A stretch of 64,000 nucleotides of DNA from Thermoanaerobaculia bacterium (GTDB taxonomy: Bacteria > Acidobacteriota > Thermoanaerobaculia > Multivoradales > UBA5704), in contig JBAPYB010000416.1 in NCBI GenBank assembly GCA_049284515.1, forward strand, positions 3,582-67,581, written 5' to 3'. Below, piece by piece: positions 6,301-24,072 of this stretch (its first letter is position 1; every line of letters begins with the position of its first letter). Under the pieces are notes generated by a model. The model searched no databases. It was given only the letters and a program-made list of their open reading frames with translations, and was not told the DNA's origin. The position numbers and the translations under genes are program-made.

Positions 6301-6418
6301 CGCGCCGCTCCCTGTCGTAGATCCGCTCCTGGTAGAGAAGAAGGACCTCACGAGGGTCGAGCCGGAGGCCCGCCGGTTGCCGGAAAAGGGAACCCGTCGC
6401 CGGAGAGGGAGTCTTCAC
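3362..6418 (-). CDS. Fused type IIG restriction-modification enzyme (PD-(D/E)xK nuclease plus gamma-class N6-adenine methyltransferase)
   Basis: 1018 aa. N-terminus has LLDFQVW...GYVEAKRPG (D...ExK) and LILTNFREFRLY. MTase motif I is LLDPAAGTLTF and motif IV is FGNPPW. The C-terminus WDYRVGGYRVLDRWL resembles the type ISP/IIG C-terminal domain. Confidence 0.75.
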   Translation of the reverse strand: MKTPSPATGSLFRQPAGLRLDPREVLLLYQERIYDRERRGESREEGFYPDLLDLLEWHAEERGLADLRVTLIPRKTQECLLDFQVWRGERIAGYVEAKRPGTNLDPVEGSKQLQRYKETFPNLILTNFREFRLYRHGKRVLRAQAGALADGPERFLELLDFFADFESPASPSTAVLAERLARRTRILATGIEELLRRDPEGISNFASFYQAFKEFLVAALTPRDFADLYAQTLAYGLLAARWQATGTFDRQTAARSIPASSGILREVFLNISLGDPHPEIAWIVDEIVAVLAAAPVRPMLERSLDRRERDPVLDFYQTFLRAYDPRLRKRRGVYYTPQELVSFVVRSVHRLLVTRLGRRDGLADPGVTLLDPAAGTLTFVVEAARCAVEAARAEMGDGSVPALLRDHVLRDFHAFELMMAPYAIGHLKMSLVLEEMGHPLRRGERFPLYLTNALEDTEELRQSSLPFVAALTQESQEAGIVKRQRRITVVFGNPPWSGHSANRDKKDKKKDKKFRNLIHDPYTSADGRSVAGYGRVGGEPLGERNPKWLQDDYVKFLRLAQRKIDEAGEGIVAFVTNHSYLDNPTFRGLRSSLLASFDEIYLLDLHGNRKKKERAPDASPDTADANVFEDVWQGVAVMFLVKRPGLQKRVLWADLWGNRGDKLRWLAERDVETTPWQGIAPRGPAFLFAPRDAALEDDYRLGISVADLFTERSVGIVTGRDEFAVDTEPEKLKRWIRSLREVKEGVPVLGAPARALVKAPRDEDWRSRFKPILFRPFDRRTIFYAVYVIERPRRAVMRQMLAGPNLGLVVARQSKEDFGALATDLIIGHKVVSTYDIDTLFPLFLFPEPTLFEPRVANLAPDVLRLFTDRLGEEPPPEMVFEYVYAVLYSPPYRRRYAELLRTDFPRVPLPRDRGAFLELSGLGSILVDLHLLRSERLRQPAVHFTGEGKGKESFEGIGPEVWDYRVGGYRVLDRWLAARAERALRFEEIEEFRRIAAALRETIWVEQRLAEVWGEIF

Positions 6419-6489
6419 GACTCCAAAGCATATCCTAAGTCAGCGCCAAGATATCCTTCGACGTAATCAATCTAGGATACAAAGAGCGA

Positions 6490-8354: not shown

Positions 8355-9344
8355 GTGGGGCGACAGGATCTCGGCTACCGCTCTCTGTTTGCCCATCGCC
8401 GCATGGTGGAGGAGCTCGTCCGCGGGTTCGTCCAGGAGGCCTGGGTCGACAAGCTCGACTTCAAAACGCTGAAACGGGTCAACGCATCCTTCGTCTCGTC
8501 GGATCTCAAGGGCCGCGAGGGGGACCTTCTCTGGAAGCTCCGTATGCGCGGCGGAACGCCGGTCTACGTCTACCTCTTCATCGAGCACCAGTCGCGGGTC
8601 GACCGCTTCATGGCGGTGCGCCTGATGGCCTACATCGCCCTGCTCTACCAGGCTCTCCTAAAAGAGGGGGAGGTGGCGCCGGACGGACGATTGCCGCTTG
8701 TCATCCCCTTGGTGCTCTACAATGGAGAGGCGCAGTGGTGGGCGCCGCAGGAGTTGGCGGAGCTGATCGAGCACCCCGGCGAGGAGGTCGAAGCCTACGT
8801 GCCGCGATTGCGGTATCAGGTGATCGACGAAGGGTGCTATTCCTTGAAGGATCTGGAGGCCCGGCAGAGCGTCGCGGCGCAGATTTTCTGGCTGGAACAA
8901 AGCCGGGAACGGAAGGCGCTCGACCGTGGGGCTGACCGCCTCGTGCCGCTGCTGAGCGGCCCGGCGGATGGCCCCCTACGGCGGGCGGTGCTGGTTTGGA
9001 TCGATCGCGTCCTGATGCCACGTCGGCGGCGGATCTCGTCGATCCCGCGAGCCTTGGGGCTGGAGGATTTCAGAACCATGTTGGAAAAGAGAGTCGAAGA
9101 GTGGAATCGCGAGCTTCGAGAGGAGGGCCGCCTCCTCGGCTTGAAGGAGGGGCGCCAGAAGGGCGTCCGGGAAGGGCGCCAGGAAGGCGAGGCCCGATTT
9201 CTGCTGCGTCTGCTTGAGCGGAAGTTCGGCCGGATCGATCCGCAGACACGCCGGAGGGTGCGCGGCGCGGATGCGGAGCGGCTGCTCCTCTGGGGCGAAA
9301 GGGTGCTCACCGCGGAGCGGCTGGAAGAAGTATTCGCCAATTAA
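8355..9344 (+). CDS. Rpn-family recombination-promoting nuclease / putative transposase (YhgA-like PD-(D/E)xK)
   Basis: 329 aa. The N-terminus (YRSLFAHRRMVEELVRGF...DLLWKL...VYLFIEHQS) is typical of the Rpn/YhgA family. The C-terminal RFLLRLLERKFG...LLLWGERVL tail is DUF4351-like. Confidence 0.8.
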   Translation: MGRQDLGYRSLFAHRRMVEELVRGFVQEAWVDKLDFKTLKRVNASFVSSDLKGREGDLLWKLRMRGGTPVYVYLFIEHQSRVDRFMAVRLMAYIALLYQALLKEGEVAPDGRLPLVIPLVLYNGEAQWWAPQELAELIEHPGEEVEAYVPRLRYQVIDEGCYSLKDLEARQSVAAQIFWLEQSRERKALDRGADRLVPLLSGPADGPLRRAVLVWIDRVLMPRRRRISSIPRALGLEDFRTMLEKRVEEWNRELREEGRLLGLKEGRQKGVREGRQEGEARFLLRLLERKFGRIDPQTRRRVRGADAERLLLWGERVLTAERLEEVFAN

Positions 9345-10261: not shown

Positions 10262-10353
10262 GCGGCGAAGTGTGTTACGCCCCCGGTGCAACGGACCGGT
10301 GAAGAACCCAACCCGCCGTGCTAGGATCGTGGTCTCCGGAAGGAGGCGCGGCA

Positions 10354-10908
10354 ATGGCAGTTCACGATCTCCCCCGCAAGCTCACCTACGACGATTACGC
10401 CTCGATCCCTGAGGATGGCCAGCGCCACGAGATCCTCGACGGAGAGCACTACGTGAGCCCAGCGCCTCTCATTCCGCATCAAGAGGTCTCTTCCAACCTG
10501 CACACGGAGCTGGGCCCGTTCATCAAGAAGCACCGGCTGGGCAAGCTGCTGGCCGCTCCCACGGACGTGATCCTCTCTACTCACGACGTCGTCCAGCCGG
10601 ACTTCCTCTTCATCTCGACCCAGCGGTTCGGGATCATCACCCGGGAGAACGTCCAGGGCGCGCCGGACCTGATCATCGAGATCCTCTCTCCAGGGACCCG
10701 CAGCCGGGATGAAGGAATCAAGAGGGAGATCTACGAGCGCTACGGCGTCCCGGAGTACTGGCTGCTCGATCCGGACCGCAAGACCACCCGAGTTTACCGG
10801 CGCCTCGGCAACCGGCTCCGCCTCGTCGCCAAGCTCTCCGCGGGGGACGTGCTCACGACGCCCTTGCTGCCGGGGCTCGAAATCCGGCTGGCCGACGTCT
10901 TCAACTGA
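10354..10908 (+). CDS. Uma2-family (DUF820) putative endonuclease
   Basis: Contains YDDY...GQRHEILDGE...PDF.F......GAPDLIIEILSP...D...K...Y...GVPEYWLLD, the characteristic Uma2 pattern. Probable start is M13 of the ORF. Confidence 0.85.
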   Translation: MAVHDLPRKLTYDDYASIPEDGQRHEILDGEHYVSPAPLIPHQEVSSNLHTELGPFIKKHRLGKLLAAPTDVILSTHDVVQPDFLFISTQRFGIITRENVQGAPDLIIEILSPGTRSRDEGIKREIYERYGVPEYWLLDPDRKTTRVYRRLGNRLRLVAKLSAGDVLTTPLLPGLEIRLADVFN

Positions 10909-11300
10909 GGGCGGGCTGGAGTCTCAATGCCAACCACTACCCACGCCAGCACGGCGCAAGCCACGGCAGCAAACACAACCGATGCAACCACATCCTTCGA
11001 CGACCGATAAACTCTAAGTATTCGGCGTAAATGTTCCCCTTTCGAACCGCGCTCCTCCAGTCTTTGCTCTTCGACGGCCCGCGCTTGAAACCAACCAACA
11101 CAGTCCGCCAAGAATGTCAAGATGACTCCAACCGCTAAAAGGGACAGATACGTCAACCGCACTCCCCCGCGAACCCCATCGCTGGTCATCAAATTGACAG
11201 CGCTTGCCAAAAGTATTACAGCCAAAACATCATAGAACCGCCGGCTCAAACTAAAGACCAGCACTATCAGTGCAAACCAGAATTCTGCTAACATCCTCAC
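10794..11300 (-). CDS. Small integral membrane protein, last gene of the island operon
   Basis: 168 aa with about 4 hydrophobic helices. Its last ~38 codons read antisense through the 3' end of the Uma2 gene, so the native C-terminus is uncertain. Confidence 0.5.
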   Translation of the reverse strand: MRMLAEFWFALIVLVFSLSRRFYDVLAVILLASAVNLMTSDGVRGGVRLTYLSLLAVGVILTFLADCVGWFQARAVEEQRLEERGSKGEHLRRILRVYRSSKDVVASVVFAAVACAVLAWVVVGIETPARPQLKTSASRISSPGSKGVVSTSPAESLATRRSRLPRRR

Positions 11301-11303
11301 ATT

Positions 11304-12641
11304 TCACCGAGCCTTCCTATCCTGTAGCAACTCCACCACTTTCCTCACGCGCAAGTCATTCCCGCCGCTCTCGTCGATATTTCTACAGTCTTCTTGCCAT
11401 TTCTCTAGTCGCCCCCTATCTTGCTCCGCTTCAATAATTGCACCAAACTCTCTACCCTCTTCTGAAACAGGCTGAAGCAGCCTACGGTAAGTGTCACTAT
11501 TCCAAAGGCTACTCCAGATCCGACGCCACAACGCCAAAGTCTCGCCCCGCAAAACGCTAAGTGCTTGTTCTTTAGAGCGCTCTTCTTCTACTTCAAGGTC
11601 GGATAGTCCACCCGTAGCCTTTGGGTGAAATAGCCGAACTAAGAAAGCCAGCCTACTTGCGTCAATGATCAGGCCCGCTGCGCTGAGCTCCGAAACAATC
11701 GCCTCACTTGTCGACTCTTCCTTTTGTCGCTTTCGTACAACGCTCTCTACATACGTCCTCGCATCCTCCGAAAGGTCGCCGCAAATTTCGTCCACACAAC
11801 TCCTAAATGCGAGGGAGTAGCGCTCCGCCACAGCGAGGAGAAAACCCCAAAGCCCTCTTCGGTCACCGGGCAAAGGTACCGCCCTTGGAAGGCTTACGAC
11901 CTGATCTGCGAACCATTTACAAAGCATGGCGATCAGATGCGGATGCCTTCCACAGAAGGCTAAAATATCTTGTTCTACATACCTCAACTGAAAGTCCTCG
12001 CGCTCCTCCTTTCCAATCACCCTTGAAATAACCCCTCGTATAAGCTCCCGGCTTTCCTCTTCACTGAGCCCACGGATCACCATGTCGGGCCTCCCGACAA
12101 TTGGCTTCGGAAATGGTCGCTTGGACCATGCCACTTCTCCAGAATCATTCCTCTCCTCAAATACGATCTTAACCTCTACGTCACCTAGGAGCCCAGAAAA
12201 AATACTATTGACCTGAGCATCGATTTTGCTCGTCCTTCCCGGAACTCGAACTAAGAGCCGCTTTATCCCCATTCGCTTTAATCCATCAGCGATCATATAA
12301 CCCAGCCCCAAGAGGGACCGGCCTCTGGAAAGCTCCGCCGCCTGCTGAGCCCACTCCTTTCCGAGGTTGGACCCAACAAACTCTATGAGACCTTCAAGAG
12401 GCGTCTTATCTATGGGCTCAGGAACAAGCTTAAAGTATGCACCTCCATTGGCGACCACTTCAAAGGCTCTAACGATCATGCACGTCTTGCCGATCCTGTA
12501 CACTCCACGGACTCGTCGCAGATCGGAGCCGGAATCCGCCATGAAGGCCTTTAACTGCTCGAAAGGCCTCAAACGCGTACCTGTCGCCTCTAACCCGACG
12601 AGCACTTCGCCCTCCCCAAGCTTTTCGTTCTTCTCTTCCAT
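11304..12641 (-). CDS. Hypothetical protein in the island operon (~445 aa)
   Basis: Long ORF in low-GC DNA with the start trimmed to MEEKNEKLG. No motif was recognised by eye. Confidence 0.55.
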   Translation of the reverse strand: MEEKNEKLGEGEVLVGLEATGTRLRPFEQLKAFMADSGSDLRRVRGVYRIGKTCMIVRAFEVVANGGAYFKLVPEPIDKTPLEGLIEFVGSNLGKEWAQQAAELSRGRSLLGLGYMIADGLKRMGIKRLLVRVPGRTSKIDAQVNSIFSGLLGDVEVKIVFEERNDSGEVAWSKRPFPKPIVGRPDMVIRGLSEEESRELIRGVISRVIGKEEREDFQLRYVEQDILAFCGRHPHLIAMLCKWFADQVVSLPRAVPLPGDRRGLWGFLLAVAERYSLAFRSCVDEICGDLSEDARTYVESVVRKRQKEESTSEAIVSELSAAGLIIDASRLAFLVRLFHPKATGGLSDLEVEEERSKEQALSVLRGETLALWRRIWSSLWNSDTYRRLLQPVSEEGREFGAIIEAEQDRGRLEKWQEDCRNIDESGGNDLRVRKVVELLQDRKAR

Positions 12642-12661
12642 AGGGGCACTCACAATGGTCG

Positions 12662-14578
12662 TCAGACCCCTTCTACTCTGCTTGCTTGAGCCAGTAGACC
12701 TACCCTCAACCGACAAGTCTTGTTTGCTTCGTCAATATGGATGATCTCTTTCTCAGCCAGAGCCTGGATCAGCGGGCCTTCCGCTGCCACTACCTTCCTC
12801 GTGTAACCATGCTCCGAAAAACGCTCGGCGGTGCCGACCAGCCGTACAAGGAAGGTCCACTCTTCCTCGCTAATGCTTTCGCTCATGTACGCGATATAAT
12901 TGTGCTCCGTCACCAAAACCTCTTTGGCGACGGCTTTCATGATCTTTATGTCAATCGGAAATCTTCCTCCGTGGGCCGCGACGTAATCTACCGCTCTTTG
13001 GAACAAAAGCTGTGCCAACCCAGGCCACCCTCCGCTTGCGCACCAAATGTATTCTACCGCTAAATCGGTAAATTTGATCGATTCGGACACTTCTGCGAGT
13101 CTCTGTAAGTCGGGCAGGCTTAGGAAAGGCACTCTTCTCGGCAGCACTGAAACGCCTCCTGAATCGAAGCGTGTTTTCCAACCCCGGGACGACCAATCAT
13201 GCGTAACAAGCATTCTGTAACCGTTAGCACCACTGGCGAGTTCTTCAAGCAAGTCCAAAACCACGCTGGCATTACCCTTTAAGTTTGAGCGAATGACTGG
13301 TATGTCTAGTTCGTCAATGAAAAAGATAAATCCTTGCCTATCTGTGGCCTGAGATAGAAGCCCCAGAATCTCTCGTAGCCCTTCCGCCGAGAGGCTAAAC
13401 TGCGGACACCTCTGTAACACTCCACTATTCCTGGAGACGCTCTCCGCTATATCCAAATTGCCAACGGCCAAGCTGGAGACATACCTTTGCGCGCTGGCTG
13501 CGAGCTCAAAGCATATGTCACCGGCGCCTAAAACGTCATCTCCGTCCATTCTATTTTCCCACCATCCGAACACGTCAAGGACAAGAGGCATAAACTTCTT
13601 CTCTGCCTCTACCTCCCTCGCAATCCTTCTGAGAACAGTTGTCTTTCCTGTCCGACGGCAGCCACGTAACACAACCACTTTCTCCCCGCCCCAACTCTGC
13701 CCAGACAGTTCAGCTACGAGTGCCTTGTGCCGGCCCTTAACCAGCCGTTCCCACTGTAGCTCCGAAATGAGCGGTAAGTCCGCCACATACGGATTGACGA
13801 CGCTCAATGGCGGCGTGGGCGTGTGAAGGATGACCTCAAGATGGTTTGAGGATAGCATCCTCTCCGATGCCGATGCCGCACCGGACCAGCTTGATTCCGC
13901 CCAGAATTCGAGAACGCAGTCTTGCTCATATCTCACAGTGACAACTCTCCGAAGGCCCGAGTGCCCGGTAATATCTCCTAAACGCACAGTCCACAACCTC
14001 TTTTGCTTATCCCAAACTGAATCTTCAATACTAGGCTTACCATCGCCCAGCGCACGGAGATAAAGGGATGTGGCTCCTGCTCCCAATCGGCCTCTGTTTT
14101 CGATTGAAATCGGCAGGTCGAGAGAGTAAGGTCCACTCGCAGAATGGAGATCCTCTTCTATGACTTCGTGATCGAGTGACACAGCAAGGGACACGAGAAG
14201 AAACGCATTCTCCTCCTCACCGCGCAACCCTCTCAACCAACGGCGGGCTGTTTCGAGCATGATCAATTCTTCTGGAAGCCCCTCATCATCGATAGCCATG
14301 ATTTCTTCAAAAGCTGCGAGCCGGTCAGCCAGAAGATCGGGAGTACCGGAGCTACAAAAAGCCTCAGCTGAGTAGCCGACTAACTCTTTAAGGGGAGTCC
14401 TACCTTGAACGCTGTCTGCTGAAAAGGTGACGTTCTCCTGGAGAGGAGACGCGGTCGCAATTCTTACCAGTTCCGAGTAGACATTAACCCTTTCCTTCGC
14501 TCCTGGAACGCCGATCTCCGCAAGATTCATAAGCTCGTCGCGGTATCGGCCTAGCGCTTCCACCTCACGTAATTTCAT
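12662..14578 (-). CDS. STAND/ORC-like P-loop ATPase
   Basis: 638 aa. Walker A is LRGCRRTGKTTVL and Walker B is FIFFIDELD. A long N-terminal extension of ~300 aa and a helical C-terminus are present. Confidence 0.7.
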   Translation of the reverse strand: MKLREVEALGRYRDELMNLAEIGVPGAKERVNVYSELVRIATASPLQENVTFSADSVQGRTPLKELVGYSAEAFCSSGTPDLLADRLAAFEEIMAIDDEGLPEELIMLETARRWLRGLRGEEENAFLLVSLAVSLDHEVIEEDLHSASGPYSLDLPISIENRGRLGAGATSLYLRALGDGKPSIEDSVWDKQKRLWTVRLGDITGHSGLRRVVTVRYEQDCVLEFWAESSWSGAASASERMLSSNHLEVILHTPTPPLSVVNPYVADLPLISELQWERLVKGRHKALVAELSGQSWGGEKVVVLRGCRRTGKTTVLRRIAREVEAEKKFMPLVLDVFGWWENRMDGDDVLGAGDICFELAASAQRYVSSLAVGNLDIAESVSRNSGVLQRCPQFSLSAEGLREILGLLSQATDRQGFIFFIDELDIPVIRSNLKGNASVVLDLLEELASGANGYRMLVTHDWSSRGWKTRFDSGGVSVLPRRVPFLSLPDLQRLAEVSESIKFTDLAVEYIWCASGGWPGLAQLLFQRAVDYVAAHGGRFPIDIKIMKAVAKEVLVTEHNYIAYMSESISEEEWTFLVRLVGTAERFSEHGYTRKVVAAEGPLIQALAEKEIIHIDEANKTCRLRVGLLAQASRVEGV

Positions 14579-15977
14579 TACCCCCTCCTACCGCCATTCT
14601 CAAATCCCACGCAGCTTTAGATAGGTTCCGTATCCCTCGATAGAGTCCTGCTTCTCCGTCGATGCTGCCGGGTGATTCCTTCATCTCTATGAAACCACGA
14701 AGAAGCTCCACGCCGAGCGGCTGTACTCGAAACGACTCGTACTCTTCCAGCAAAATTTCGGGATGCAAAATCCATCTACGCGCAATCACAGGGGCGAGAC
14801 TCCAGGCGATCTCTCGGGGCTTCTCATTAGAAAGCAAGCCGACAATCCGAAGTCTCTCGTGCTCTAGGTCGGCGCAATGGTTAATCATTGCCGATAGGAT
14901 TTCTCTCAGTTCCTCGCTTATGGTCCCCCCCGACTCTCGCGCCAACGAAACTCCTTCTGTGAGGGCGGCTTCGAGGGCCAAATTTGCTTCATCGCGTTTA
15001 CCAACTTTTTTGCCGAGCTCCACCGCGGCACTTCGCATCCTCTCTACTTTCGCAAGACTTACAGATACTGAGCCTCTTCTCAGTCGCGCTCTCCTCCAGA
15101 GCAAGTAGGACCAGAGCGCTAGAGCACCAAAGCCGATGGGCAACCAAACGCGGACCATCTTCCCTCGGTACCCGCTCCACATATTCTCCGTTGACCCACC
15201 TGAGAGAACTCGAGGTCTCGGTTCCAGCGATATCGGAGCTTCAAGTTTATTCTGGAGAATGCGTCTTGTCTCCAGGAGGAGATTGGTGCCCTCCGACACT
15301 CGGATATACCTTCCATGCCCCAACACCCTCTGCCAGAGAAGCATCTCGCGTTGGCGATCCCCAACTGCTAGAATATTGACCTCTGCACCCCAAGCCTCCA
15401 GACTCCTGATGGCTTGCACAGGTGAAACAGAGTTAGTTGCTGTATACAAATCCTCGCCGCTAAGATAGCTTTTCTCCTCTGGTTCGCTCATTCGCCTCGG
15501 TTGAAGCCAAGGTTCCCCATCTGTAATCATGAAAACCAGACACATGCGATTGACAAAGCAAGGCTTGCCTCTCCGGAAGGCTGATAGAGCGTATTGAAGT
15601 GGAGGCCTGAAGTCCGTGAATGAGATCGGCACTGAGTACGAGAAAGGCGCCTGATCTCCCGACTTGCCATCCATCACTATTTTCGCTCCCAATTTTTCTC
15701 CAAAATCAACCGCTTCTATGTGAACCTCTAAACCGTAGAAATCGACCGCGCCTGCGAATTGCCTTAAAAGGCTCGTGGCTAATTTCGTTACGGCCGGTTC
15801 TCCGTTGTACTTCCTTGCCACCATGCTCGGTGATCTGTCTAGAAGAAGTACGATGTCCAATTTCGGCTCTGCGCTACTCACTTGCCCTAAGACTTCAGCC
15901 GAGACCCCCGTTGTTAACAGAGTCGAGAGTAGGAGAACTTCGAAAAGCACTCTTCCGACTGGTAGGTGTAAGGACAT
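14565..15977 (-). CDS. Membrane-anchored vWA-domain protein
   Basis: 470 aa. N-terminal signal-like segment is LLLSTLLTTGVSA. MIDAS motif is LLLDRSPSM and MITDGEPW follows. An internal TM helix (VWLPIGFGALALWSYLLW) precedes a helical tail. Confidence 0.7.
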   Translation of the reverse strand: MSLHLPVGRVLFEVLLLSTLLTTGVSAEVLGQVSSAEPKLDIVLLLDRSPSMVARKYNGEPAVTKLATSLLRQFAGAVDFYGLEVHIEAVDFGEKLGAKIVMDGKSGDQAPFSYSVPISFTDFRPPLQYALSAFRRGKPCFVNRMCLVFMITDGEPWLQPRRMSEPEEKSYLSGEDLYTATNSVSPVQAIRSLEAWGAEVNILAVGDRQREMLLWQRVLGHGRYIRVSEGTNLLLETRRILQNKLEAPISLEPRPRVLSGGSTENMWSGYRGKMVRVWLPIGFGALALWSYLLWRRARLRRGSVSVSLAKVERMRSAAVELGKKVGKRDEANLALEAALTEGVSLARESGGTISEELREILSAMINHCADLEHERLRIVGLLSNEKPREIAWSLAPVIARRWILHPEILLEEYESFRVQPLGVELLRGFIEMKESPGSIDGEAGLYRGIRNLSKAAWDLRMAVGGGNEIT

Positions 15978-16140
15978 AAGCTAGCCAACGTTAACGTTCT
16001 TGCAGCGCTTCTCGCAGAAGTCCTTTTCACCTTGTAAAACAACACCCTCAGAGGCAGCAATACGGCTTATGAAAGGACTCCAGCAGAGAATGAGCGCTTT
16101 TCTGGGTCTCATGGATGACCACCAAATCTGCGAGGTCGGC

Positions 16141-17646
16141 CTACTTTCTCTCGAAGTTCAAAGACAAGCATCCGCGGTAGCGGCTACGGCCCACGGTCTT
16201 CTGTAAGATGCTAGTCGAGACATCGCGAAGGTAGAGGGTCTTTCCTGAAATTGCTTTCGGGGAGGTGTCATCCTGTGTGCTCCAAGCGCCGAGCCAATTC
16301 TCTGCCCCGATGAAACTCATGTCGACAGAAATTGACAAAGGGATGGCTAGCTTCCATCGATCGCGCGGCTGCGAGACTAGTCGCTCGTAAGGGATCGAGA
16401 GCTCTAAGTACTGAACCATGGAACTATCCTGCACTGGCTGCTGGCGCTTGACCTCGAAGTGAGGGATGCCGCGTGTTAATCTCGCACCGAGATCCAGATT
16501 CCCCTCGGACGCACTCTTCCAAGCCTGCAAAGGTAGGCTTAGCAAAACGTCATCTTGGTTGATAGATAATCGAACCTTCACAGGAAATAGAATCTCCGAG
16601 GATCTTGGTTGCTCGAAGTCTAGCTCAGCTAAGCTCATTGAGGTATCCATCGGGCGATGAGTCCAGCTCCGAACACGAAATATATCGACGAAACCGGGCG
16701 AGGCCTGCTGATCTCCCGGCCCGTGAGAAACCTCTATCTCTTCTGGTTCTTCAACTACGAGTGAAGGCAAAATCCCAGGAAAGAACTCGATGACCTGGCT
16801 CTTGGAATGGCTACCTGCACTCAGACCGCTGTACCTTTCCAAATCTTCATGCAATCTCGCGACGAGTCGGCGCCCCTTCTCCCAATCTCGAGATACAACC
16901 CAACAATAGAAAGGCCTTTCACTCCCTTGCTGCAAGGTTATCCTTTGATTGGTTACAACACCCGCCGGTCCTCGGGTAAGAAGTACACTATAATAGACTC
17001 CATCGAAAGGGCTTTGAACTCCCAGAAGCCAAACCCCGAATCCTTTACCTGCAAGATCTCCCGTTACTGCCCTAACGATACCGGACCGATCAAAGCCAAA
17101 AGCTCTTCGTTCTTTAAAGGTCTCCAAATCTTGGGTGTTGTCCGTGATTACGACACTGAGAGAGGATTCCTTTCCGGAAGCTCGCTCTAGAGCCGCAACA
17201 ATATCCGTGTCGCGCTGGGAATAACTTCCCCTGCTTCTAACGAAATCTTGAAGATGGCTTAAAGGCGAGGGCGATGTAGGAACTTCACTTCCAAACGGAT
17301 AGAATCCTGGCACAACACCAAGGTCGTTCAATTCCTCCAGCAAAAGACTTTGCAAGAGTTGCTGGAGAGGTGACACGGGCATCGCGTGAGTAGCGTCACT
17401 AAGATATCCCTGCATAGACTCGGAGGAGTCCAGGTAGATATCCGCTTGGGTGACTGGCGCTGAAGCAAACTCGGTTGCTTTCTCAGAGTGGCACAATTTC
17501 TCCGCGTCCTCCGTACCCTCAGTGGTCCCTCCGCAAGATGTTCCCAAGAAAAGGGCGACTGTTGCCAACAGAGCAAGCCGGACAGTTAGCCGGTCGTTGA
17601 TTCTGCCCCTCCTCATCGATAGCCTCCTCAAAGCCTCAGACGACAA
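16141..17646 (-). CDS. Secreted or lipoprotein-like vWA-like protein
   Basis: 501 aa. Signal sequence has a lipobox-like FLGTSC. MIDAS-like motif is IYLDSSESM and VVITDNTQD follows. Confidence 0.6.
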   Translation of the reverse strand: MSSEALRRLSMRRGRINDRLTVRLALLATVALFLGTSCGGTTEGTEDAEKLCHSEKATEFASAPVTQADIYLDSSESMQGYLSDATHAMPVSPLQQLLQSLLLEELNDLGVVPGFYPFGSEVPTSPSPLSHLQDFVRSRGSYSQRDTDIVAALERASGKESSLSVVITDNTQDLETFKERRAFGFDRSGIVRAVTGDLAGKGFGVWLLGVQSPFDGVYYSVLLTRGPAGVVTNQRITLQQGSERPFYCWVVSRDWEKGRRLVARLHEDLERYSGLSAGSHSKSQVIEFFPGILPSLVVEEPEEIEVSHGPGDQQASPGFVDIFRVRSWTHRPMDTSMSLAELDFEQPRSSEILFPVKVRLSINQDDVLLSLPLQAWKSASEGNLDLGARLTRGIPHFEVKRQQPVQDSSMVQYLELSIPYERLVSQPRDRWKLAIPLSISVDMSFIGAENWLGAWSTQDDTSPKAISGKTLYLRDVSTSILQKTVGRSRYRGCLSLNFERK

Positions 17647-18454
17647 AGGTGCCCCTCCTCACCACCAAATCCTTCGAAATAAAGCCTTCGAGGGACCCCT
17701 GCGCTTCCAGGAGGGCACAGCGCCGAAGCTCTTTCACGAAGAGATCCACGCTTCCGCTGGCTCCCAGAACCTCAAAGAGATGATCATGCACCAGGGGATC
17801 ATAGCGGCTATAGTTGCGTGGGATGAGAAAGCGCCTGCAGTCCTTCTGGGGATCTCGGTATGCCACTGACAAGAAAAACCAATGATTCGAGCCGCCTCTC
17901 TCCACAGAGGGATAAGGCTCGATAATAGGTTCCGCTAAGCCCTCATTTCGAAAGTAATCGAGAAGTTTTTTCGATGCTTCCTCGAAGGCTCCTTCCATCC
18001 CAGGCCACACCCCCGCCAAGAATCCTGGCGCACTCAATTCACGAGCTAGCAGATTTTCGAGCGCGAGAGAATCCTGCTCCTCGCGTCTGGGGAGTTGCGG
18101 AAGCTGGTCAAGGTGCAGGGATGCAACGGCTTCATCTTCTTGGTTGTCATGCTGAGGAGCCCTTCTTGGTTCCGCCAGTTGCCCAGCCTTCCTGAAATCG
18201 GCTTGGAGCGCCAGAGCGTCGGTCAAGGGTTTGAGATCGAGGCTTTGGGGCTTCTGCGCCAGGATCTGCGTCAAAAGGAGATCGGTCTTACTCTCGACAT
18301 ACTTCTCGAGAGCCCGAAACTCCCGGCGCCAGTCCTCGATCGAAGGCAGGGACTGTCGGTTCTTTGCCTGCCGGCTCTGCAACCACAGCCACACTACGCC
18401 ACTGAGCGACAAGGCTTGGAGGACGACAAGCCAGATTAAGAGGGCCTGCTGCAA
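17636..18454 (-). CDS. N-terminally membrane-anchored protein of unknown function
   Basis: 272 aa. Has a single N-terminal TM helix (LLIWLVVLQALSLSGVVWLWL). Its start abuts the stop of the upstream gene. Confidence 0.55.
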   Translation of the reverse strand: MQQALLIWLVVLQALSLSGVVWLWLQSRQAKNRQSLPSIEDWRREFRALEKYVESKTDLLLTQILAQKPQSLDLKPLTDALALQADFRKAGQLAEPRRAPQHDNQEDEAVASLHLDQLPQLPRREEQDSLALENLLARELSAPGFLAGVWPGMEGAFEEASKKLLDYFRNEGLAEPIIEPYPSVERGGSNHWFFLSVAYRDPQKDCRRFLIPRNYSRYDPLVHDHLFEVLGASGSVDLFVKELRRCALLEAQGSLEGFISKDLVVRRGTFVV

Positions 18455-21400
18455 TCAGAGCCTCCTGGCTCGATAAAGCTGCTTCAGGTAGATCGTCTCG
18501 AGGAATCGCACGAGGATGCTGCGGTTTACCAACGGGCGCTCGATGTTCACGATGTCCTTGTTGCACTCCCTCTCAAGCGCTTGGACTTCGGCGCCTTTCT
18601 CGAACTGGATGAAATCCCAAGCTGGCGGGAGCTTGATCTCTGAAAGGACCGGATGCAAACGAGAGTCCGAGAGCTGATGGGGCACGACCTCATGCCAGGG
18701 CACATCTTCGCGCTTTCCCGAACCGTTGCTGTAGCGGACGTCAAATCCGACAACGGACCGGACGCCATTTACTCCGTTGCCGACATCCTCAATGCTGCGG
18801 TACAAATCTCTCTCTGCCGCTATGATCGTGCCGTAGCCAATCGCCGCCTTCGGTCCGGGCCAAGTAATACCGTTCCCGAGACTAGGCTCCCTTGCAGCCG
18901 TCAGTTTGGTGAAGCCCTCCCTCTCAAGAAGGAAGCGAAACACTTCACGAAAGCCGGCGCGGTAGTTAGAATCCTGGGAGGGTACGACATCGGCCAGAGA
19001 CCAGCCATTTCCTACGAGATAGAAGGTCACCTCTTCCTGACGATAGTCCTTCTGCCGATGGACCGACAATGAGTCGAACAAGCAACGAATAAAATGCGCG
19101 ATGGGAGAGTAGAATCGTATAAGCAGATCGATCATTACCTGCCGGGCATGAGCGTTGCCGCGATATTGCGTCCGCACGACGGTCTCGAATCCTCGCAGGC
19201 GGGTTTCCCGCAGCAACCACAAGAGGCGATGCCGCGCGTCGCGAGTCTCTGTGGGCTTCGGAAACAGGTCCGCTTGGCGATCATCGGCGAGTAGGCGCAG
19301 GAAGGCGTTGCCACCATAGAGCAGACTATCGATGAAGATTGGCTTCAGCTCGCTCTGATCCCATTCGAACATGCCGATGTCGGTAGTACCTCCCCCCATA
19401 TCTACAACCAAGGAGAGACCCTCAGGAACTCTTAGAGAAAACGCCGCCGCTCGCGACTCATCAATGAAGTGTTGAGTATTGGTCGGGAACCCAGTGAGCC
19501 TGTCGAGCGATTTCAAAACACGGTCAAGGCACTGGAGATACGTTTTCAACTTGGCTTGGGAAAAGGCTCGCGGGAATGACGCCCGCACTTTGAGGAATCC
19601 GGTCCTCGGCTCCTCGGCAATGATCGTCGCCAAGGTGAGAACGAGGAACAGCTCGAGGTAGCGAGACACGGCCTGTTCATAGGTGAAACGACCCGCGGCA
19701 TCGCCCTTCTCGTCCAAAGTCTTCAATTCGTAGATGACTTCTCCCTGGGGCTCCGAGACGTAGACGTGCAGAATGCGAAATCCGCCGATCGGCTTGTTCA
19801 GCATCTCCGCCGAGACCGGAGGAGTGACCACTAATTCTGACGGAATGAAGTAATTCATCCTCTCAATGATCTCGATGGGTTCTGGAGCCACGCCGTCCTC
19901 AGTTTGAAGTTCAGAGAAGTAGCGGGATCGAACCGTCTCCTCATCGTCGATGCGGTAAGTCGGCAGCCACTGAGAAGTCCGAATGATACGATCTGATATC
20001 GTTCGGTTTCCAATCAGCGTTTCGGTGAAGTCTCGAAACCGTATGACCTTGGGCGCATCGTCACCGATCCTATACCACACCGAGGAGCTCGACGTTCCAA
20101 AGTCGAGCGATATGGTCACCGGAGTCTGACCACGATGCTGCTCGACGCGAGAGGTCTCATAGATTCCCGACTGAGACTCGATCTTCCCGTCTTTAGAAAA
20201 GACAATCTCGAATGCTTCAAAAGGCTGCGTTAACTGGCCACGCCTGTCCGTTAACAGCGTCGGCTCACCGTGAGTATCCAGGCTTCGCAGGGTAATACCC
20301 GCCTTGTTCATCCCCGGGGTCGATTCAAGGAGGTAGTAGTATACGTTCCACCCCCTTAGGTTGAATCGCGGCCAGGAAAGGAGGATCGCTTCCTCCTTCT
20401 GGATCTCCTTGGGTGAGTACCGCAGAGTAATGGTGGTGCTCTTCCAGCCTTCGACGTTCACCTTTAGTGGTACGATGTAGTCACCCGACAGACGATCCAT
20501 TACAGCGCGCCTGTCATCCGCAATGGACACCAGTCCGTAGTACTCGCCCCGCACCGGCAAACTCGGCTCATACTGATGGCTGTTGTCCTGAGGGTCCTGA
20601 AAGAAGATCAGCCGAGTGCATTTGAGGGCGTCTTCCGTCAGGATGAGCCCGCGTATCTTGAGAGAGAATTTCCCCGTCTGGAGGACAATCCCATCTTGTT
20701 CGTAGGACACGTACTTGGAATAGGGGAGACGGCGCACGGGACTATCGGCAAAAGCATAAATGAGATAACGGTTTCGCCCCTCGTCAAATTTGATCCATGT
20801 CGCGTACTCCTCCAGCCAATTCTGCCTCGCGCCGCAGTGCGGGCAGCGACATTCATCAGGATGAGCGATGTCGACCTGACCTGTTTCTGTTGTGATGTCG
20901 AACCCGCAATTCTCGCAAACAATGGGCGTACCGATATAGAGAGGGATCTGGGGCTGTGAAACTTCTGCGGCCAAGCCAGCCTCCCCCAGGCGCAGAACCG
21001 GTCCAACTCCGAAGAGCCGCGCAGGCTCCCGCGGCAGCGAGCCCGATGCATCGGGATTCCACACCGCCGCCAACCTGTAGACCAAGGTGTAGAAGGGCAG
21101 ACGCCCCTGGTCTTGCTCATCGAAGGTGCGAACCCAACCGACGAAATACTCGGACGCCTTTTCCACATCCTTCGCCTGGACCGCCTCCTTCAAAGACGCG
21201 AGGGTCTCAGGTCTCAAGCGGGAAGCAGGAGCGAAACCGATACCTGGATACGTGAAGCCAATAACGCTACCAGAATACGTCAGGAATTGAAACCGAAATC
21301 CGGATTCGAACGATTCGAACTCTCGGTGGAGGATCAGCCCCAATTCTTTTAAATCCTCCAGCTTGACGTCTCGCGGTGTGATTAAGCCGAGATAGATTCC

Positions 21401-21667
21401 CTTGAGTATCAGGCTCCAGAGCTCGAAGCTCTCGCTGAAGCGAAGCCTGGAGCCCTTACCCTGGAGATCTAGCAGGTATTGGTCGAGACGATTTGCAAAG
21501 ACGAGCGCGTTCGCCAGCGGCGAAGGGGTTCCGAAGTCGCTGGCATCGAAGTAGTTCTCGCATAGATTGCGCTGATAATCCAGATCGGAGACCCCGTGGA
21601 GGCCAACCTCGGCTTGGTGGGGCCAATCCTGCACTTTCGGCTTGGGCAGCAGGGGAACGGTCGCCAT
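18455..21667 (-). CDS. Giant Hsp70/actin-fold ATPase with an N-terminal region containing a zinc ribbon
   Basis: 1070 aa. Zinc ribbon is CENCG...18 aa...CPHCG (aa 251-279). Phosphate-1 is SLDFGTSSSSV (aa ~519). Phosphate-2 is VVDMGGGTTDIG (aa ~753). An adenosine-like motif FYLVGNGWS is present. Confidence 0.75.
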   Translation of the reverse strand: MATVPLLPKPKVQDWPHQAEVGLHGVSDLDYQRNLCENYFDASDFGTPSPLANALVFANRLDQYLLDLQGKGSRLRFSESFELWSLILKGIYLGLITPRDVKLEDLKELGLILHREFESFESGFRFQFLTYSGSVIGFTYPGIGFAPASRLRPETLASLKEAVQAKDVEKASEYFVGWVRTFDEQDQGRLPFYTLVYRLAAVWNPDASGSLPREPARLFGVGPVLRLGEAGLAAEVSQPQIPLYIGTPIVCENCGFDITTETGQVDIAHPDECRCPHCGARQNWLEEYATWIKFDEGRNRYLIYAFADSPVRRLPYSKYVSYEQDGIVLQTGKFSLKIRGLILTEDALKCTRLIFFQDPQDNSHQYEPSLPVRGEYYGLVSIADDRRAVMDRLSGDYIVPLKVNVEGWKSTTITLRYSPKEIQKEEAILLSWPRFNLRGWNVYYYLLESTPGMNKAGITLRSLDTHGEPTLLTDRRGQLTQPFEAFEIVFSKDGKIESQSGIYETSRVEQHRGQTPVTISLDFGTSSSSVWYRIGDDAPKVIRFRDFTETLIGNRTISDRIIRTSQWLPTYRIDDEETVRSRYFSELQTEDGVAPEPIEIIERMNYFIPSELVVTPPVSAEMLNKPIGGFRILHVYVSEPQGEVIYELKTLDEKGDAAGRFTYEQAVSRYLELFLVLTLATIIAEEPRTGFLKVRASFPRAFSQAKLKTYLQCLDRVLKSLDRLTGFPTNTQHFIDESRAAAFSLRVPEGLSLVVDMGGGTTDIGMFEWDQSELKPIFIDSLLYGGNAFLRLLADDRQADLFPKPTETRDARHRLLWLLRETRLRGFETVVRTQYRGNAHARQVMIDLLIRFYSPIAHFIRCLFDSLSVHRQKDYRQEEVTFYLVGNGWSLADVVPSQDSNYRAGFREVFRFLLEREGFTKLTAAREPSLGNGITWPGPKAAIGYGTIIAAERDLYRSIEDVGNGVNGVRSVVGFDVRYSNGSGKREDVPWHEVVPHQLSDSRLHPVLSEIKLPPAWDFIQFEKGAEVQALERECNKDIVNIERPLVNRSILVRFLETIYLKQLYRARRL

Positions 21668-21683
21668 CGCTTACCTCCAGACT

Positions 21684-23099
21684 CTACAGACTAAAAACTT
21701 GCGCCAGATGCGACAGGAAGAGGTTCGAGAATCTTTCCGCGAAGGCTTCGGGAGTGCGTAGGTCCCTCTTCGGAAACTGTGCCACGACGTGCCGATCGTC
21801 ACACCAATCCTGGATCGCGGCGAGCGGCTCGGCGACTGTCTGATCGTAGCGCTCCGCCAAGACTCTTTCGGCTCCCTCTGGGAATGGGAAAAAGTGGGGA
21901 TGGTTCATTTTCTTGATCCAATCAACATTGGCGGTTGACTGGCCCTGGAGTTTTCCGAGGTAATCGGCAACGGCAGCAGTCACCTGATTGTCCGTCAGCG
22001 TGGAGCCTTTCAGCATGTTGATCGCCGTCTGGATCAAGATAGGCTGATGTGAGCCCGGAAGTCGCGGGAACTTTCGGAAAAACTTGCTGAGGATGCCTAG
22101 CCAGTGGCCGCGAACGTACGACCGGTGGATCACCTTGATCAGGCTGAGGGGGTCGGCGTTCGCCTCGCGATTCACCAACAGGTTACTGGCATTGAGTCCG
22201 CTTTCATCGTCGTACCAATATCCAGCTATTCCCTGAGGTGGGGAGAGAGCACCGGCGAAATGATTCTGGACCAGCAGAGCTGCCAGGAGATTGAGGATAT
22301 GAGGGACCTCATCCTGCGACGACTCGCTGCTGGTCCGGTCCACCTGGCCGGGATCAGGAACACCCAGGAGAAATACCGTGTTCACAAATTGACGCAGCCG
22401 CTCCCGGAAGTAGTAGATGCCGGCGGCCGCATTAGGCTCGAAATTCGCATTGAGATAGTCGTGTAGCTTCGCCTGGGAGGCCTTCACTCCACCTTCTGGT
22501 GGGATGAGACGGAACCACGGTAAGAAGATCATGGCGTCCACCTGAAGGTTGTAGCCAGGCTGGCCATTCAAGCGGGAAAGCTCAGAGGCGAGCATCGGCA
22601 CCCCGCCGGACCCGGTGCCTCCAAAGCAGGAACCGACGAGAATGACGTGCTTCTCTCCTCCTCTCAAGGCGTTCTTCAGGTCCTTCATATCCTCGTCGTC
22701 CTGCTGGATCTTGTACTGGATGCAGGTGGCCCCGATCGCGGGCCGGCCATACATGCCGGTACGGATCGGCGTATGCTCCGCTTCTTCGGAGAAGAGGCAA
22801 TTGAAGAGCTCCCGGCGGTCCCCCGCCAGGTTTCCGAACAAACTGCCAAACGTCTTTCGGTCGGCATCGGCGATCGGAAAGGGGTCGATCATCCAGCGGA
22901 GAGGGGGCTCCTTTCCACCTACCACTTCTTTGACCCTTCCCTTGAGCGTTGCGAGCACGCGGCCCAACGGGCCTTCGGTGTCTGAATCCACGACGTAGAA
23001 CGTCGCCGGAGTAAAGCCGGCCATCTCCGCAAGCCGCAGGTAGGCAGCGAGGACCATCTGCCCAGTACCGCCAACTCCGATGAGAACAGGGATCTTCAT
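21684..23099 (-). CDS. Tubulin/FtsZ-superfamily GTPase (Tubulin_2/FtsZl1-like)
   Basis: 471 aa. T1-like loop is VLIGVGGTGQ. T3-like loop is GMYGRPAIGA. The tubulin signature is GSCFGGTGSGGVP (nt ~22602-22622). Confidence 0.75.
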   Translation of the reverse strand: MKIPVLIGVGGTGQMVLAAYLRLAEMAGFTPATFYVVDSDTEGPLGRVLATLKGRVKEVVGGKEPPLRWMIDPFPIADADRKTFGSLFGNLAGDRRELFNCLFSEEAEHTPIRTGMYGRPAIGATCIQYKIQQDDEDMKDLKNALRGGEKHVILVGSCFGGTGSGGVPMLASELSRLNGQPGYNLQVDAMIFLPWFRLIPPEGGVKASQAKLHDYLNANFEPNAAAGIYYFRERLRQFVNTVFLLGVPDPGQVDRTSSESSQDEVPHILNLLAALLVQNHFAGALSPPQGIAGYWYDDESGLNASNLLVNREANADPLSLIKVIHRSYVRGHWLGILSKFFRKFPRLPGSHQPILIQTAINMLKGSTLTDNQVTAAVADYLGKLQGQSTANVDWIKKMNHPHFFPFPEGAERVLAERYDQTVAEPLAAIQDWCDDRHVVAQFPKRDLRTPEAFAERFSNLFLSHLAQVFSL

Positions 23100-23113
23100 G
23101 TCAACTCCTTGCC

Positions 23114-23746
23114 TCAGCCATTCTCCATGATGCGCTGAAATTTCTTTGCTGTCACGGACCTTGGAAGCGTCACTCCTACCCAGAAGAAGAGAAACGCCGC
23201 CAGGAGAGAAGTCAATAGAATGAAAAGGCCGAGAACGAGGCCGCCAAGCCAGCTTCGCAAGGCCCAGGCGGCAGGAAGGAACTGCTTGGCGAGCTCGACC
23301 TCATTGGTCGGCTGAAAGATAGCCCTGGGCAGGCCGATGCCTGAAAGGATGCACGCGACGGCGAACAGCAGGAACAACGCATTGAACCAGGACTTCGATT
23401 CTCGGTCGGCGGCAATGGCACGCGCGTTCATGGCTGAGGTCCAGCGATACCAACCCGCGAGCCCCATACCCATGAAGAGACTGATCAGAGCCCACACAGA
23501 GAGAAATAGCCATTTCTGGCTGGCTACGAACTCAGGGCGGATCAAGCCGCTTGAGCTCGTGTCGATCGGGCCGAGAAAGCGCCCCGTTATCGCGTTGACC
23601 TGGTTTGGCAACAAAGTCGTGTAGATGCTGAACATAACCGACAAGATCGTTGCGATTGAGGCTGCCACGTTGAAAACGGCGTCGAGCTTGCGCTGGTTGG
23701 CCACAGAAATCTCCTCACGCGTAAGCGCGGAACAAAATCGAGACAA
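23114..23746 (-). CDS. Integral membrane protein, first gene of the island operon
   Basis: 210 aa with about 4 TM helices. TTG start; an alternative GTG start lies at 23704. Confidence 0.6.
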   Translation of the reverse strand: MSRFCSALTREEISVANQRKLDAVFNVAASIATILSVMFSIYTTLLPNQVNAITGRFLGPIDTSSSGLIRPEFVASQKWLFLSVWALISLFMGMGLAGWYRWTSAMNARAIAADRESKSWFNALFLLFAVACILSGIGLPRAIFQPTNEVELAKQFLPAAWALRSWLGGLVLGLFILLTSLLAAFLFFWVGVTLPRSVTAKKFQRIMENG

Positions 23747-23815
23747 CAGCCCTCAAGAGAGGACGGGATCCCAGGCCTCTACATGTTCATTTAGGCACAG
23801 AGCACTCGTAGCCCT

Positions 23816-23844
23816 AGTATTCCACGCAGCGACGGGCTGGTCAA
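23816..23844 (-). promoter_or_regulatory. Candidate sigma-70 promoter of the island operon
   Basis: The minus strand reads TTGACC-17 nt-AATACT about 70 nt upstream of the first gene. The match is weak. Confidence 0.25.
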
Positions 23845-24072
23845 GGCTTCAAGGTCAGGCTAAAAATAGTTACGCATCGAAATATTGCAATGCTAGGCTA
23901 CGACGCTGGCCGCCCCTCTGTTCTAACCCCTGAAGACACCAGCCAAGTGGCTTTGGTTAGACGGATTGGACGCCGCAGGTGCTCGTGCTCCCGGCCCCTC
24001 CCGGCCCCTCCTTTACCTGTAAGCAACCCCGGTTCCGTGCTATGGTCCCCTGTCGCTTCCGGAGGGAACCCG

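Follow-up and report, generated by a model that had tools for sequence, protein, structure and literature searches.

A predicted Hsp70/actin-type ATPase coupled with a tubulin-like protein in a rare, horizontally acquired gene cluster of a Thermoanaerobaculia bacterium

What does a large protein with the ATPase motifs of Hsp70 do next to a tubulin-like protein, in an operon that is neither a chaperone locus nor a division locus? This question is raised by a stretch of 64,000 nucleotides (nt) from a Thermoanaerobaculia bacterium (contig JBAPYB010000416.1, positions 3,582 to 67,581 of the forward strand), which is called the window below and to which all positions refer. The gene under study, recomputed from the window, occupies positions 18455-21667 of the minus strand, starts with ATG and has 1070 codons; its product (the target) is identical in sequence to WAM82_22910, a hypothetical protein of a Thermoanaerobaculia metagenome-assembled genome (MAG) at NCBI. 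An original prediction, made from the sequence alone, had described an Hsp70/actin ATPase core behind an N-terminal region of about 500 residues carrying a Cys4 ribbon. The computational analysis shows a protein in five parts. An N-terminal peptide is followed by an alpha/beta domain, then by a Cys4 zinc ribbon and a region rich in beta strands, and the C-terminal module of about 555 residues comprises a core of the ASKHA fold (actin/Hsp70/sugar kinase) and a tail. The parts of the gene are:

18455-21667, minus strand: target gene encoding the 1070-residue multidomain protein (open reading frame, identical MAG protein, 23 full-length homologues)
21527-21667, minus strand: N-terminal peptide, residues 1-47, LLP..W.P..G.H..DYQRNLCENYY.ASDFGTPSPLA (near-invariant columns; predicted local distance difference test score, pLDDT, below 50)
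20942-21526, minus strand: alpha/beta domain, residues 48-242 (pLDDT 75-95; replaced by a TIR domain in the relative P0023)
20828-20926, minus strand: Cys4 zinc ribbon or rubredoxin-like knuckle pair, residues 248-280 (C251, C254, C275 and C278 invariant)
20132-20815, minus strand: beta-rich region, residues 285-512 (DSSP strands; only non-significant Ig-like fold matches)
18818-20125, minus strand: ASKHA (Hsp70/actin-type) core, residues ~515-950 (PDB profile, Foldseek, DSSP topology, superfamily invariance)
18458-18817, minus strand: conserved C-terminal tail, residues 951-1070, short strands and two helices (DSSP)
21668-21683, minus strand: 16-nt spacer between the target and the upstream tubulin-like reading frame, sequence AGTCTGGAGGTAAGCG

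The protein belongs to a small family of its own. A search of 5.8 billion proteins yielded 24 clusters, all of them full length (993-1078 amino acids, aa; 43-100% identity) and one with a Pfam annotation. Start and length are conserved across 23 full-length homologues, and every motif quoted in the original prediction is invariant there, which confirms the protein as real. The motifs are SLDFGTSSSSV (phosphate-1; residues 520-530, nt 20078-20110), VVDMGGGTTDIG (phosphate-2; residues 754-765, nt 19373-19408) and FYLVGNGWS (adenosine-like; residues 882-890, nt 18998-19024); all are present, two of them 3 nt away from where they had been placed. In these homologues (43-74% identity) the ATPase positions D522, G524, T525, S526, D756, G758-760, T761 and D763 are invariant, as are G886, N887, G888 and W889, and the connect-1 segment IDESRAAA does not vary in the alignment of close homologues.

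The wider superfamily is much larger, with about 650 representative clusters at 50% identity. A profile search of 1.84 billion representatives retrieved 648 proteins at E <= 1e-3, most of which match the C-terminal ~450 residues alone. An alignment of 43 distant relatives, with 19-28% identity to one another, has 14 invariant columns, among them D522, G524, T525, K649, E737, D756, G758, D763 and G886, all of which are kept in the target. Invariance of the catalytic columns down to 19% identity points to selection on a nucleotide-hydrolysing active site and not to a chance motif. A scan of GTDB genomes added at least three distant relatives among the matches listed, which were dominated by the generic DMGGGTTD pattern.

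Assignment of the C-terminal half to the ASKHA fold comes from several kinds of comparison. A phmmer search of PDB with the single sequence was non-significant (E = 0.23-0.97); the family profile matched 103 PDB chains at E <= 10, of which the best 60 are all ASKHA proteins. The first match is the nucleotide-binding domain (NBD) of BiP (E = 7.5e-4), followed by mortalin, DnaK, EutJ and exopolyphosphatase; the alignments are restricted to the NBD (profile positions 707-848) and are in register with the INEPTAAA...DLGGGTFD segment of Hsp70. Distant relatives hit only ASKHA families in Pfam and NCBIfam, namely MreB, FtsA, Ppx-GppA, EutJ, EutA and HscA, below threshold; the relative P0031 exceeds the Ppx-GppA gathering threshold (35.9 vs 27 bits), over just 70 residues.

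An AlphaFold2 model, built on an alignment of 23 sequences, has a mean pLDDT of 77.8, with 80-95 over most of residues 610-1070. A Foldseek search of PDB with this model gave 267 matches at E <= 1e-3, the best 50 of which all belong to the Hsp70 family (BiP, Hsc70, DnaK; E = 2.6e-9 to 3.2e-7, probability 1.00), and nearly all significant matches in BFVD are Hsp70 family members as well, such as closterovirus HSP70h and giant-virus Hsp70. According to DSSP, the model contains the beta-beta-beta-alpha-beta-alpha-beta-alpha topology twice, in lobe I (E517-522, E527-533, E540-542, H544-551 ... E691-698, H704-725, E729-736, H737-743) and in lobe II (E750-757, E762-770, E773-782, H786-794 ... E880-885, H887-894, E922-924, H941-949), with insertions at ~552-690 (IB-like) and ~796-871 (IIB-like). 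The phosphate-1 and phosphate-2 motifs lie on the two beta1-beta2 hairpins, and GNGW lies at the beta4'-alpha2' junction. Profile, model and topology thus agree on an Hsp70/actin-type core behind the ribbon-bearing N-terminal region, and fortuitous motifs on some other fold, the outcome that the original prediction had named as speaking against it, were not what the profile and Foldseek searches returned. We assign residues ~515-950 to the Hsp70/actin clade of the ASKHA fold with high confidence.

The catalytic set consists of D522-F-G-T-S (phosphate-1), E737 (connect-1), D756-M-G-G-G-T-T-D763 (phosphate-2), which follows the DxGGGTxD pattern of Hsp70 as had been stated, and G886-N-G-W (adenosine); K649 is a candidate catalytic Lys. 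As these residues are intact, the module is likely to be an active ATPase.

The fold is that of Hsp70, outside the canonical chaperone family. No substrate-binding domain (SBD) was found, as had been predicted: the target has no Pfam HSP70 match, nothing beyond the NBD was matched in PDB, and the tail of about 120 residues (invariant W991, W1017, R1049, S1050, R1054 and F1055) is too short for an SBD-beta and a lid. Pfam and NCBIfam scans identified no DnaJ or GrpE partner among the nine proteins of the gene cluster described below. A canonical Hsp70 chaperone was rejected on these grounds. FtsA was rejected too, since the target has neither an SHS2_FTSA (1C) or FtsA match nor a C-terminal membrane-targeting helix; the weak FtsA matches of a few relatives are confined to the phosphate-2 region. 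A hydropathy peak at residues 666-684 was considered as a transmembrane segment and rejected, since it corresponds in the model to helix H663-685, which is buried in the ASKHA fold; the hydropathy scan revealed no signal peptide, transmembrane helix or terminal amphipathic segment in the target.

The N-terminal half was studied with the family profile against PDB and with a separate AlphaFold2 model compared by Foldseek, which amounts to the database search of this region alone that had been proposed. Both approaches were negative: the profile found no significant sequence relative in PDB, and the 512 N-terminal residues have no fold relative among its solved structures (no Foldseek matches at E <= 1e-3). 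The whole-protein and N-terminal models concur on the layout of residues 1-512. Residues 1-47 are among the most conserved of the family yet are predicted to be disordered in both models; as a candidate motif they may bind a partner, for instance the tubulin-like protein. The cysteine pattern had been given as CENCG-x18-CPHCG; it is present, with x19 between G255 and C275, so that the element reads C251-x2-C254-x20-C275-x2-C278 (nt 20834-20917). All four cysteines are invariant in 24 aligned sequences, and a fifth, C273, nearly invariant, lies inside the element. The two CxxC knuckles fit the zinc-ribbon sequence pattern (spacing of 15-25 residues) and align with the rubredoxin metal site, non-significantly (profile against PDB, E = 1.6); the ribbon probably binds metal. 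The segment ~420-510 of the beta-rich region (WPxF...GWN.YY) stays with the ASKHA core also where the latter is fused to a tubulin-like domain, as described below (residues 432-540 vs the fusion protein P0144, BLASTP E = 5e-5).

Which partner the protein works with is indicated by the gene immediately upstream:

21684-23099, minus strand: predicted tubulin/FtsZ-like GTPase of the FtsZl1/Tubulin_2 type, 471 aa (motifs, sub-threshold Pfam matches, orthologue profile)

The spacing between the two genes is exactly 16 nt, as originally given, and the spacer contains a Shine-Dalgarno sequence GGAGG, 6 nt 5' of the target ATG. The suggested co-expression is supported by synteny and by gene fusions. 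A tubulin-like gene is paired with a target-type gene in 7/7 operon contexts (loci L002/L003, L004, L005, L010, L011 and L012), and in every operon-type relative examined the tubulin-like homologue is immediately upstream or one gene away. The assignment extends to the upstream genes of three very distant relatives (hhalign probabilities 99.9, 99.9 and 99.7%, E = 1e-34 to 5e-26). Moreover, in three proteins of 1608-1787 aa (P0102, P0144 and the one encoded in L007), one of which comes from a Methylococcaceae MAG, a tubulin-like domain precedes the WPxF..GWN.YY beta region and the ASKHA core within a single polypeptide. Such fusions are Rosetta-stone evidence of a physical or functional partnership, and together with the synteny they make functional coupling of the ASKHA protein with the tubulin-like protein very probable.

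In L012 an extra gene of 581 aa (5172-6917) without detectable similarity separates the tubulin-like and ASKHA-like genes; it may stand in for the N-terminal half, which is absent from the 875-aa ASKHA protein there.

The superfamily is thus one whose few deeply conserved residues are those of an ATPase active site, and which is tied to a tubulin-like GTPase by synteny and fusion. This provides a concrete, testable case for an actin-fold/tubulin-fold partnership outside cell division.

The two genes belong to a cluster of nine co-directional genes (10794-23746) around the target, which consists of a conserved five-gene core and variable cargo. The core comprises a four-helix membrane protein, the tubulin-like protein, the target, a 272-aa protein with one transmembrane helix and a vWA protein of about 500 aa. 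The other genes and the island that carries them are:

23114-23746, minus strand: 210-aa protein with four hydrophobic helices, first core gene (hydropathy; orthologues in L002, L004 and L005)
17636-18454, minus strand: 272-aa core protein with one N-terminal transmembrane helix, a variable linker and a conserved C-terminal domain of ~130 aa
16141-17646, minus strand: 501-aa core vWA protein with a lipoprotein-like hydrophobic N-terminus (by motif; no Pfam match)
14565-15977, minus strand: second vWA protein, 470 aa, variable cargo, with a MIDAS-like DRSPS and an N-terminal hydrophobic segment (VWA_2, E = 0.017)
12662-14578, minus strand: 638-aa P-loop ATPase, AAA/STAND-like, variable cargo (AAA_14, AAA_16, ATPase_2 and nSTAND_NTPase5, all sub-threshold)
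11304-12716, minus strand: 470-aa protein, variable cargo (no family match)
10794-11300, minus strand: 168-aa protein with four hydrophobic helices, last gene of the cluster (hydropathy)
11000-24000, no strand: low-GC island coextensive with the nine-gene cluster (50-58% GC vs 65-68% in the flanks, sharp borders)

The TGA stop of the target is directly contiguous with the TTG start of the next gene. The 501-aa protein has invariant MIDAS (metal ion-dependent adhesion site) motifs IYLD-x-S-x-SM and TDG-x-QD, and its orthologues are found in L002, L004, L005 and the distant L010; the core thus has its own vWA protein besides the weakly detected vWA domain encoded at 14565-15977. Hydrophobic helices are present in 5/9 proteins of the cluster and in three of the five core proteins. 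The cargo genes differ between loci. The second vWA protein and the 470-aa protein encoded at 11304-12716 have no orthologues in the other loci compared, and the 638-aa ATPase shares just 65 aa of similarity with a vWA-AAA_35 protein of L005. The cargo elsewhere includes a vWA-AAA_35 fusion, CHAT and CHAT-FGE-sulfatase proteins, and an RHS/YD-repeat protein (TEN_YD-shell). A gap of 163 nt (15978-16140) separates the core from the four cargo genes, all other junctions being 16 nt or less, or overlapping; its position exactly at the border of core and cargo suggests two modules or transcription units. A scan of the window for promoters and terminators produced numbers not above chance (10 found vs 6 expected and 15 vs 14.6, respectively); one promoter, 23844-23816 on the minus strand, is positionally plausible.

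The cluster was acquired horizontally, as shown by the computational analysis. At the low-coordinate edge of the island there are a YhgA-like Transposase_31 gene (8355-9344, plus strand, E = 9e-34) and a Uma2 endonuclease-like gene (10318-10908, plus strand, E = 2e-36); the latter is convergent with the last gene of the cluster and overlaps its 3' end by about 115 nt.

A second low-GC patch of the window (42-46 kb, 53-54% GC) carries a gene (42608-45346, plus strand) for a 912-aa protein with an Mrr_cat restriction endonuclease and an nSTAND1 domain, an architecture like that of the antiviral Avs STAND proteins.

What the operon does can be approached through its variable parts. The relative P0023 (L001, 10001-12982) has a TIR domain in place of residues 1-242 (TIR_2, residues 26-127, E = 3.7e-20), and its match to the family starts at profile position 243. 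Its locus lacks the tubulin-like, transmembrane and core vWA-lipoprotein genes; it adjoins a PIN/DUF6364 toxin-antitoxin pair and has a gene with a faint VWA_CoxE match two genes upstream. Since the swapped domain goes together with loss of the other core genes, the N-terminal domain would link the protein to the other core components, and since the TIR variant stands alone, the ribbon, the beta region and the ASKHA core would make up a self-contained unit that can control an effector. The variant also provides an experimental handle, an NADase read-out, on what the ASKHA module senses. In L004 the conserved core is flanked by a CHAT-FGE-sulfatase fusion (6007-7926) and a second CHAT protease (16394-17680), and the tubulin-ASKHA fusion locus L006 has CHAT, trypsin and Peptidase_C14 (caspase) neighbours. 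The distribution is rare and patchy, with the 24 clusters mentioned above. The TIR swap, the CHAT, caspase and trypsin neighbours, the STAND-like cargo ATPase, the Uma2 and transposase genes beside the low-GC island, the Mrr-nSTAND1 gene elsewhere in the window, mobility and rarity fit the grammar of a constant NTPase core with variable effectors (PMC7159879).

These observations are circumstantial, and on them we regard a conflict (anti-invader) function of the operon as evenly balanced against its absence. The best explanation overall, for which we have a modest preference, is a tubulin-coupled ASKHA ATPase in a membrane-associated conflict system of the vWA/FtsZl1 kind. In such a system the membrane and extracytoplasmic vWA components would sense an envelope or invader cue, and the ASKHA ATPase would serve as an ATP-dependent switch or assembly module whose N-terminal domain or peptide engages the tubulin-like GTPase. 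The two NTPases might then co-assemble into a higher-order, NTP-dependent structure, which could either contain the invader or activate the variable partners, such as the STAND-like ATPase here and CHAT proteases elsewhere. In the TIR variant the ribbon, beta region and ASKHA core may act as an autonomous ATP-dependent sensor and oligomeriser that drives the effector in the STAND manner. The more specific proposal of a two-NTPase immune module, in which the ASKHA protein is a sensor and oligomerisation switch that, once triggered, polymerises together with its tubulin-like partner at the membrane and so encloses invaders or activates effectors, with the stand-alone TIR-ASKHA protein as its minimal one-gene version, is speculative and rather unlikely. 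If it were true, prokaryotic immunity would have a new class of NTPase-switch receptors, with ASKHA instead of STAND or AAA+ P-loop NTPases, and a cytoskeleton-like pair whose folds are those of eukaryotic actin and tubulin would have a role in defence.

Several observations weigh against the preferred conflict system. With about ten neighbourhoods inspected, the variable genes around the family could be there by coincidence. Neither the viral contigs of IMG/VR nor the plasmids of PLSDB yielded a relative, and the target has no match above threshold in Pfam, NCBIfam or PADLOC; its weak matches, EutJ at 0.0015 and PDC-M61B at 0.022, both fall on the phosphate-2 loop, and no PADLOC model beyond the weak PDC-M61B matches the family. 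The 471-aa protein probably has the tubulin fold, with motifs that are invariant (T1-like GVGGTGQ and the T4 signature GSCFGGTGSGG) and Pfam matches that are sub-threshold (Tubulin_2, E = 8.3e-5, 22.4 bits with a gathering threshold of 27; Tubulin, E = 7.3e-4); a profile of four orthologues retrieved only the archaeal CetZ/FtsZ structure 4b46 from PDB (E = 0.036). The ASKHA structure is a predicted one, based on an alignment of low depth, and its TM-scores to Hsp70 NBDs are 0.42-0.49 (normalised to NBD-only targets) with large root-mean-square deviations, which we attribute to the large insertions and the orientation of the lobes; with such scores the fold assignment depends on the Foldseek probability, topology and motifs.

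The PADLOC candidate defence protein PDC-M61B is also weakly matched, on the phosphate-2 loop, by two members of the superfamily (best value 2.7e-5), and the system proposed around it could include an ASKHA protein, either unrelated or very distant.

The most serious alternative to a conflict system, possible and still unlikely in our estimate, is a membrane-remodelling or cytoskeletal machine without any immune role, in which a tubulin-like polymer is tethered or regulated by the ASKHA protein at the membrane through the transmembrane partners, in the manner of FtsZ and FtsA, with the extracytoplasmic vWA proteins as its link to the envelope; such a machine would form vesicles, shape the envelope or serve in surface adhesion. 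An ASKHA gene adjoining a tubulin-fold gene is indeed the arrangement of ftsA-ftsZ, and some relatives have weak FtsA and MreB profile matches, although fold matches favour Hsp70 over FtsA, MreB and actin, and no SHS2/1C domain is matched. The membrane-rich core, with hydrophobic helices in 3/5 of its proteins, fits this alternative equally well, as do the N-terminal hydrophobic segments of both vWA proteins, and membrane remodelling is what Makarova & Koonin 2010 (PMC2875224) proposed for vWA/FtsZl1 operons. Against it, a rare and patchy distribution and a low-GC island are atypical of a housekeeping cytoskeleton, and the TIR-fused stand-alone variant and the CHAT, caspase, trypsin and STAND-like neighbours also count against it.

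A dedicated chaperone that folds, metal-loads or assembles the co-encoded vWA proteins, as in the MoxR-vWA and CoxD-CoxE pairs, with the zinc ribbon in a DnaJ-like client-handling role, is improbable. It agrees with the presence of a vWA gene in the conserved core and with the nearest structural neighbours being the true chaperones BiP, DnaK and Hsc70, and NTPase-vWA chaperone pairs are established (PMC7159879); however, besides the missing SBD and co-chaperones, the predicted location of the vWA domains is extracytoplasmic, whereas neither a signal peptide nor a transmembrane helix is present in the ATPase, and both the strict coupling and fusion with a tubulin-like GTPase and the TIR variant without the core vWA lipoprotein are left unexplained. 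That the motifs are fortuitous, the C-terminal half not ASKHA or the reading frame spurious might have been argued from a single sequence without Pfam matches and with non-significant phmmer results; it is effectively refuted by 23 full-length homologues with conserved start and length, motifs invariant down to 19% identity, profile and fold searches that return ASKHA/Hsp70 proteins, and a correct secondary-structure topology. A tubulin-coupled ASKHA ATPase in a conflict system remains our preferred explanation; a defensive role would enlarge the repertoire of NTPase switches in immunity, and with a cytoskeletal one the operon would encode a new bacterial membrane-remodelling machine.

The closest structural parallel is the Hsp70 NBD (DnaK, BiP, Hsc70). 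The predicted two-lobed fold is shared, the fold and profile matches are the best, and the motifs phosphate-1 D-x-G-T, connect-1 I-[ND]-E-x-x-A-A-A, phosphate-2 D-x-G-G-G-T-x-D and G-x-G are common to both. Unlike Hsp70, the target (~14% identity, no Pfam HSP70 match) has large insertions; it lacks the interdomain linker, SBD-beta, lid and DnaJ/GrpE partner, and its ASKHA core is preceded by 512 residues of unrelated domains including the zinc ribbon.

In the gene pair ftsA-ftsZ, a ubiquitous part of the dcw cluster, genes for an actin-fold ATPase and a tubulin-fold GTPase stand side by side. As there, the genes studied here are adjacent and co-directional, and their products, an ASKHA protein and a predicted GTPase of the tubulin superfamily, would act at the membrane; in both cases the ASKHA protein may serve to connect a polymer of the tubulin kind with partners in the membrane. 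In contrast to ftsA-ftsZ, the gene order is reversed, the ASKHA protein is nearer to Hsp70 than to FtsA and has no detected 1C/SHS2 domain or C-terminal amphipathic helix, the tubulin-like protein is probably of the FtsZl1/Tubulin_2 type, without FtsZ_C, and the cluster, unlike a housekeeping division locus, is rare and was acquired horizontally. That one operon should pair NTPases of the tubulin and actin folds had been called unusual in the original prediction; given ftsA-ftsZ, the FtsZl1-vWA-DnaK neighbourhood (PMC2875224) and the systems of Kaur et al. 2020 (PMC7159879), this was overstated.

The operons nearest in gene content are the vWA/FtsZl1 operons, which Makarova and Koonin read as membrane-remodelling machinery (PMC2875224) and whose FtsZ-like families are covered by the Pfam model Tubulin_2. 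They combine a Tubulin_2-type gene and vWA genes with membrane proteins and lineage-specific unknowns; the cluster in the window likewise has vWA genes with MIDAS motifs and membrane-associated partners, next to a probable Tubulin_2-type gene. One neighbourhood in the supplement of that paper, FtsZl1-vWA-vWA-DnaK(HSP70) of M. magneticum AMB-1 (amb2958-amb2961), even includes a giant Hsp70-like protein, the 1626-aa amb2961 (COG0443 DnaK), the comparison being by annotation. The text of PMC2875224 was found to contain no Hsp70-like partner, whereas here it is a constant one, with a ribbon-containing N-terminal half and with tubulin-ASKHA fusions.

Kaur et al. 2020 (PMC7159879) described tubulin and HSP70 components of DO-GTPase conflict systems as non-overlapping themes and proposed that they form NTP-dependent assemblies. 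The DO-GTPase/GAP1 systems resemble the cluster in being NTPase-centred, vWA-containing and membrane-proximal, with variable effectors and a common vocabulary of TIR, caspase/CHAT and FGS domains; the two themes that are separate there are strictly coupled here. Pfam profiles identified no DO-GTPase in the cluster, the sole P-loop protein giving AAA/STAND matches, and membership in these systems was rejected for want of such a GTPase. The CoCoNuT type III systems (PMC11090510) contain Hsp70-like NBD/SBD proteins, CnuD and CnuCD, and thus also have a divergent Hsp70-like module in a predicted defence operon, sometimes with vWA genes nearby; CnuD retains the SBD and has degenerate ATPase motifs, whereas the target has intact motifs and no SBD, and the partners are a McrBC GTPase/nuclease there and a tubulin-like GTPase here.

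The TIR-swapped relative P0023 is comparable to the Avs-like TIR-STAND receptors, having an N-terminal TIR effector and an NTPase predicted to switch or oligomerise; in place of the P-loop STAND it has an ASKHA ATPase, and no repeat-type sensor was recognised in it. A literature search for a characterised tubulin-like/Hsp70-like defence system found none, and four things appear to be undescribed in the searchable literature: the ASKHA family itself, for which Pfam, NCBIfam and PADLOC have no model, the ribbon-bearing N-terminal half, the strict coupling and fusion to a tubulin-like subfamily, and the TIR-swapped variant. With them the vWA/FtsZl1 operons, recognised in 2010 and long unexplained, gain a second constant enzymatic component.

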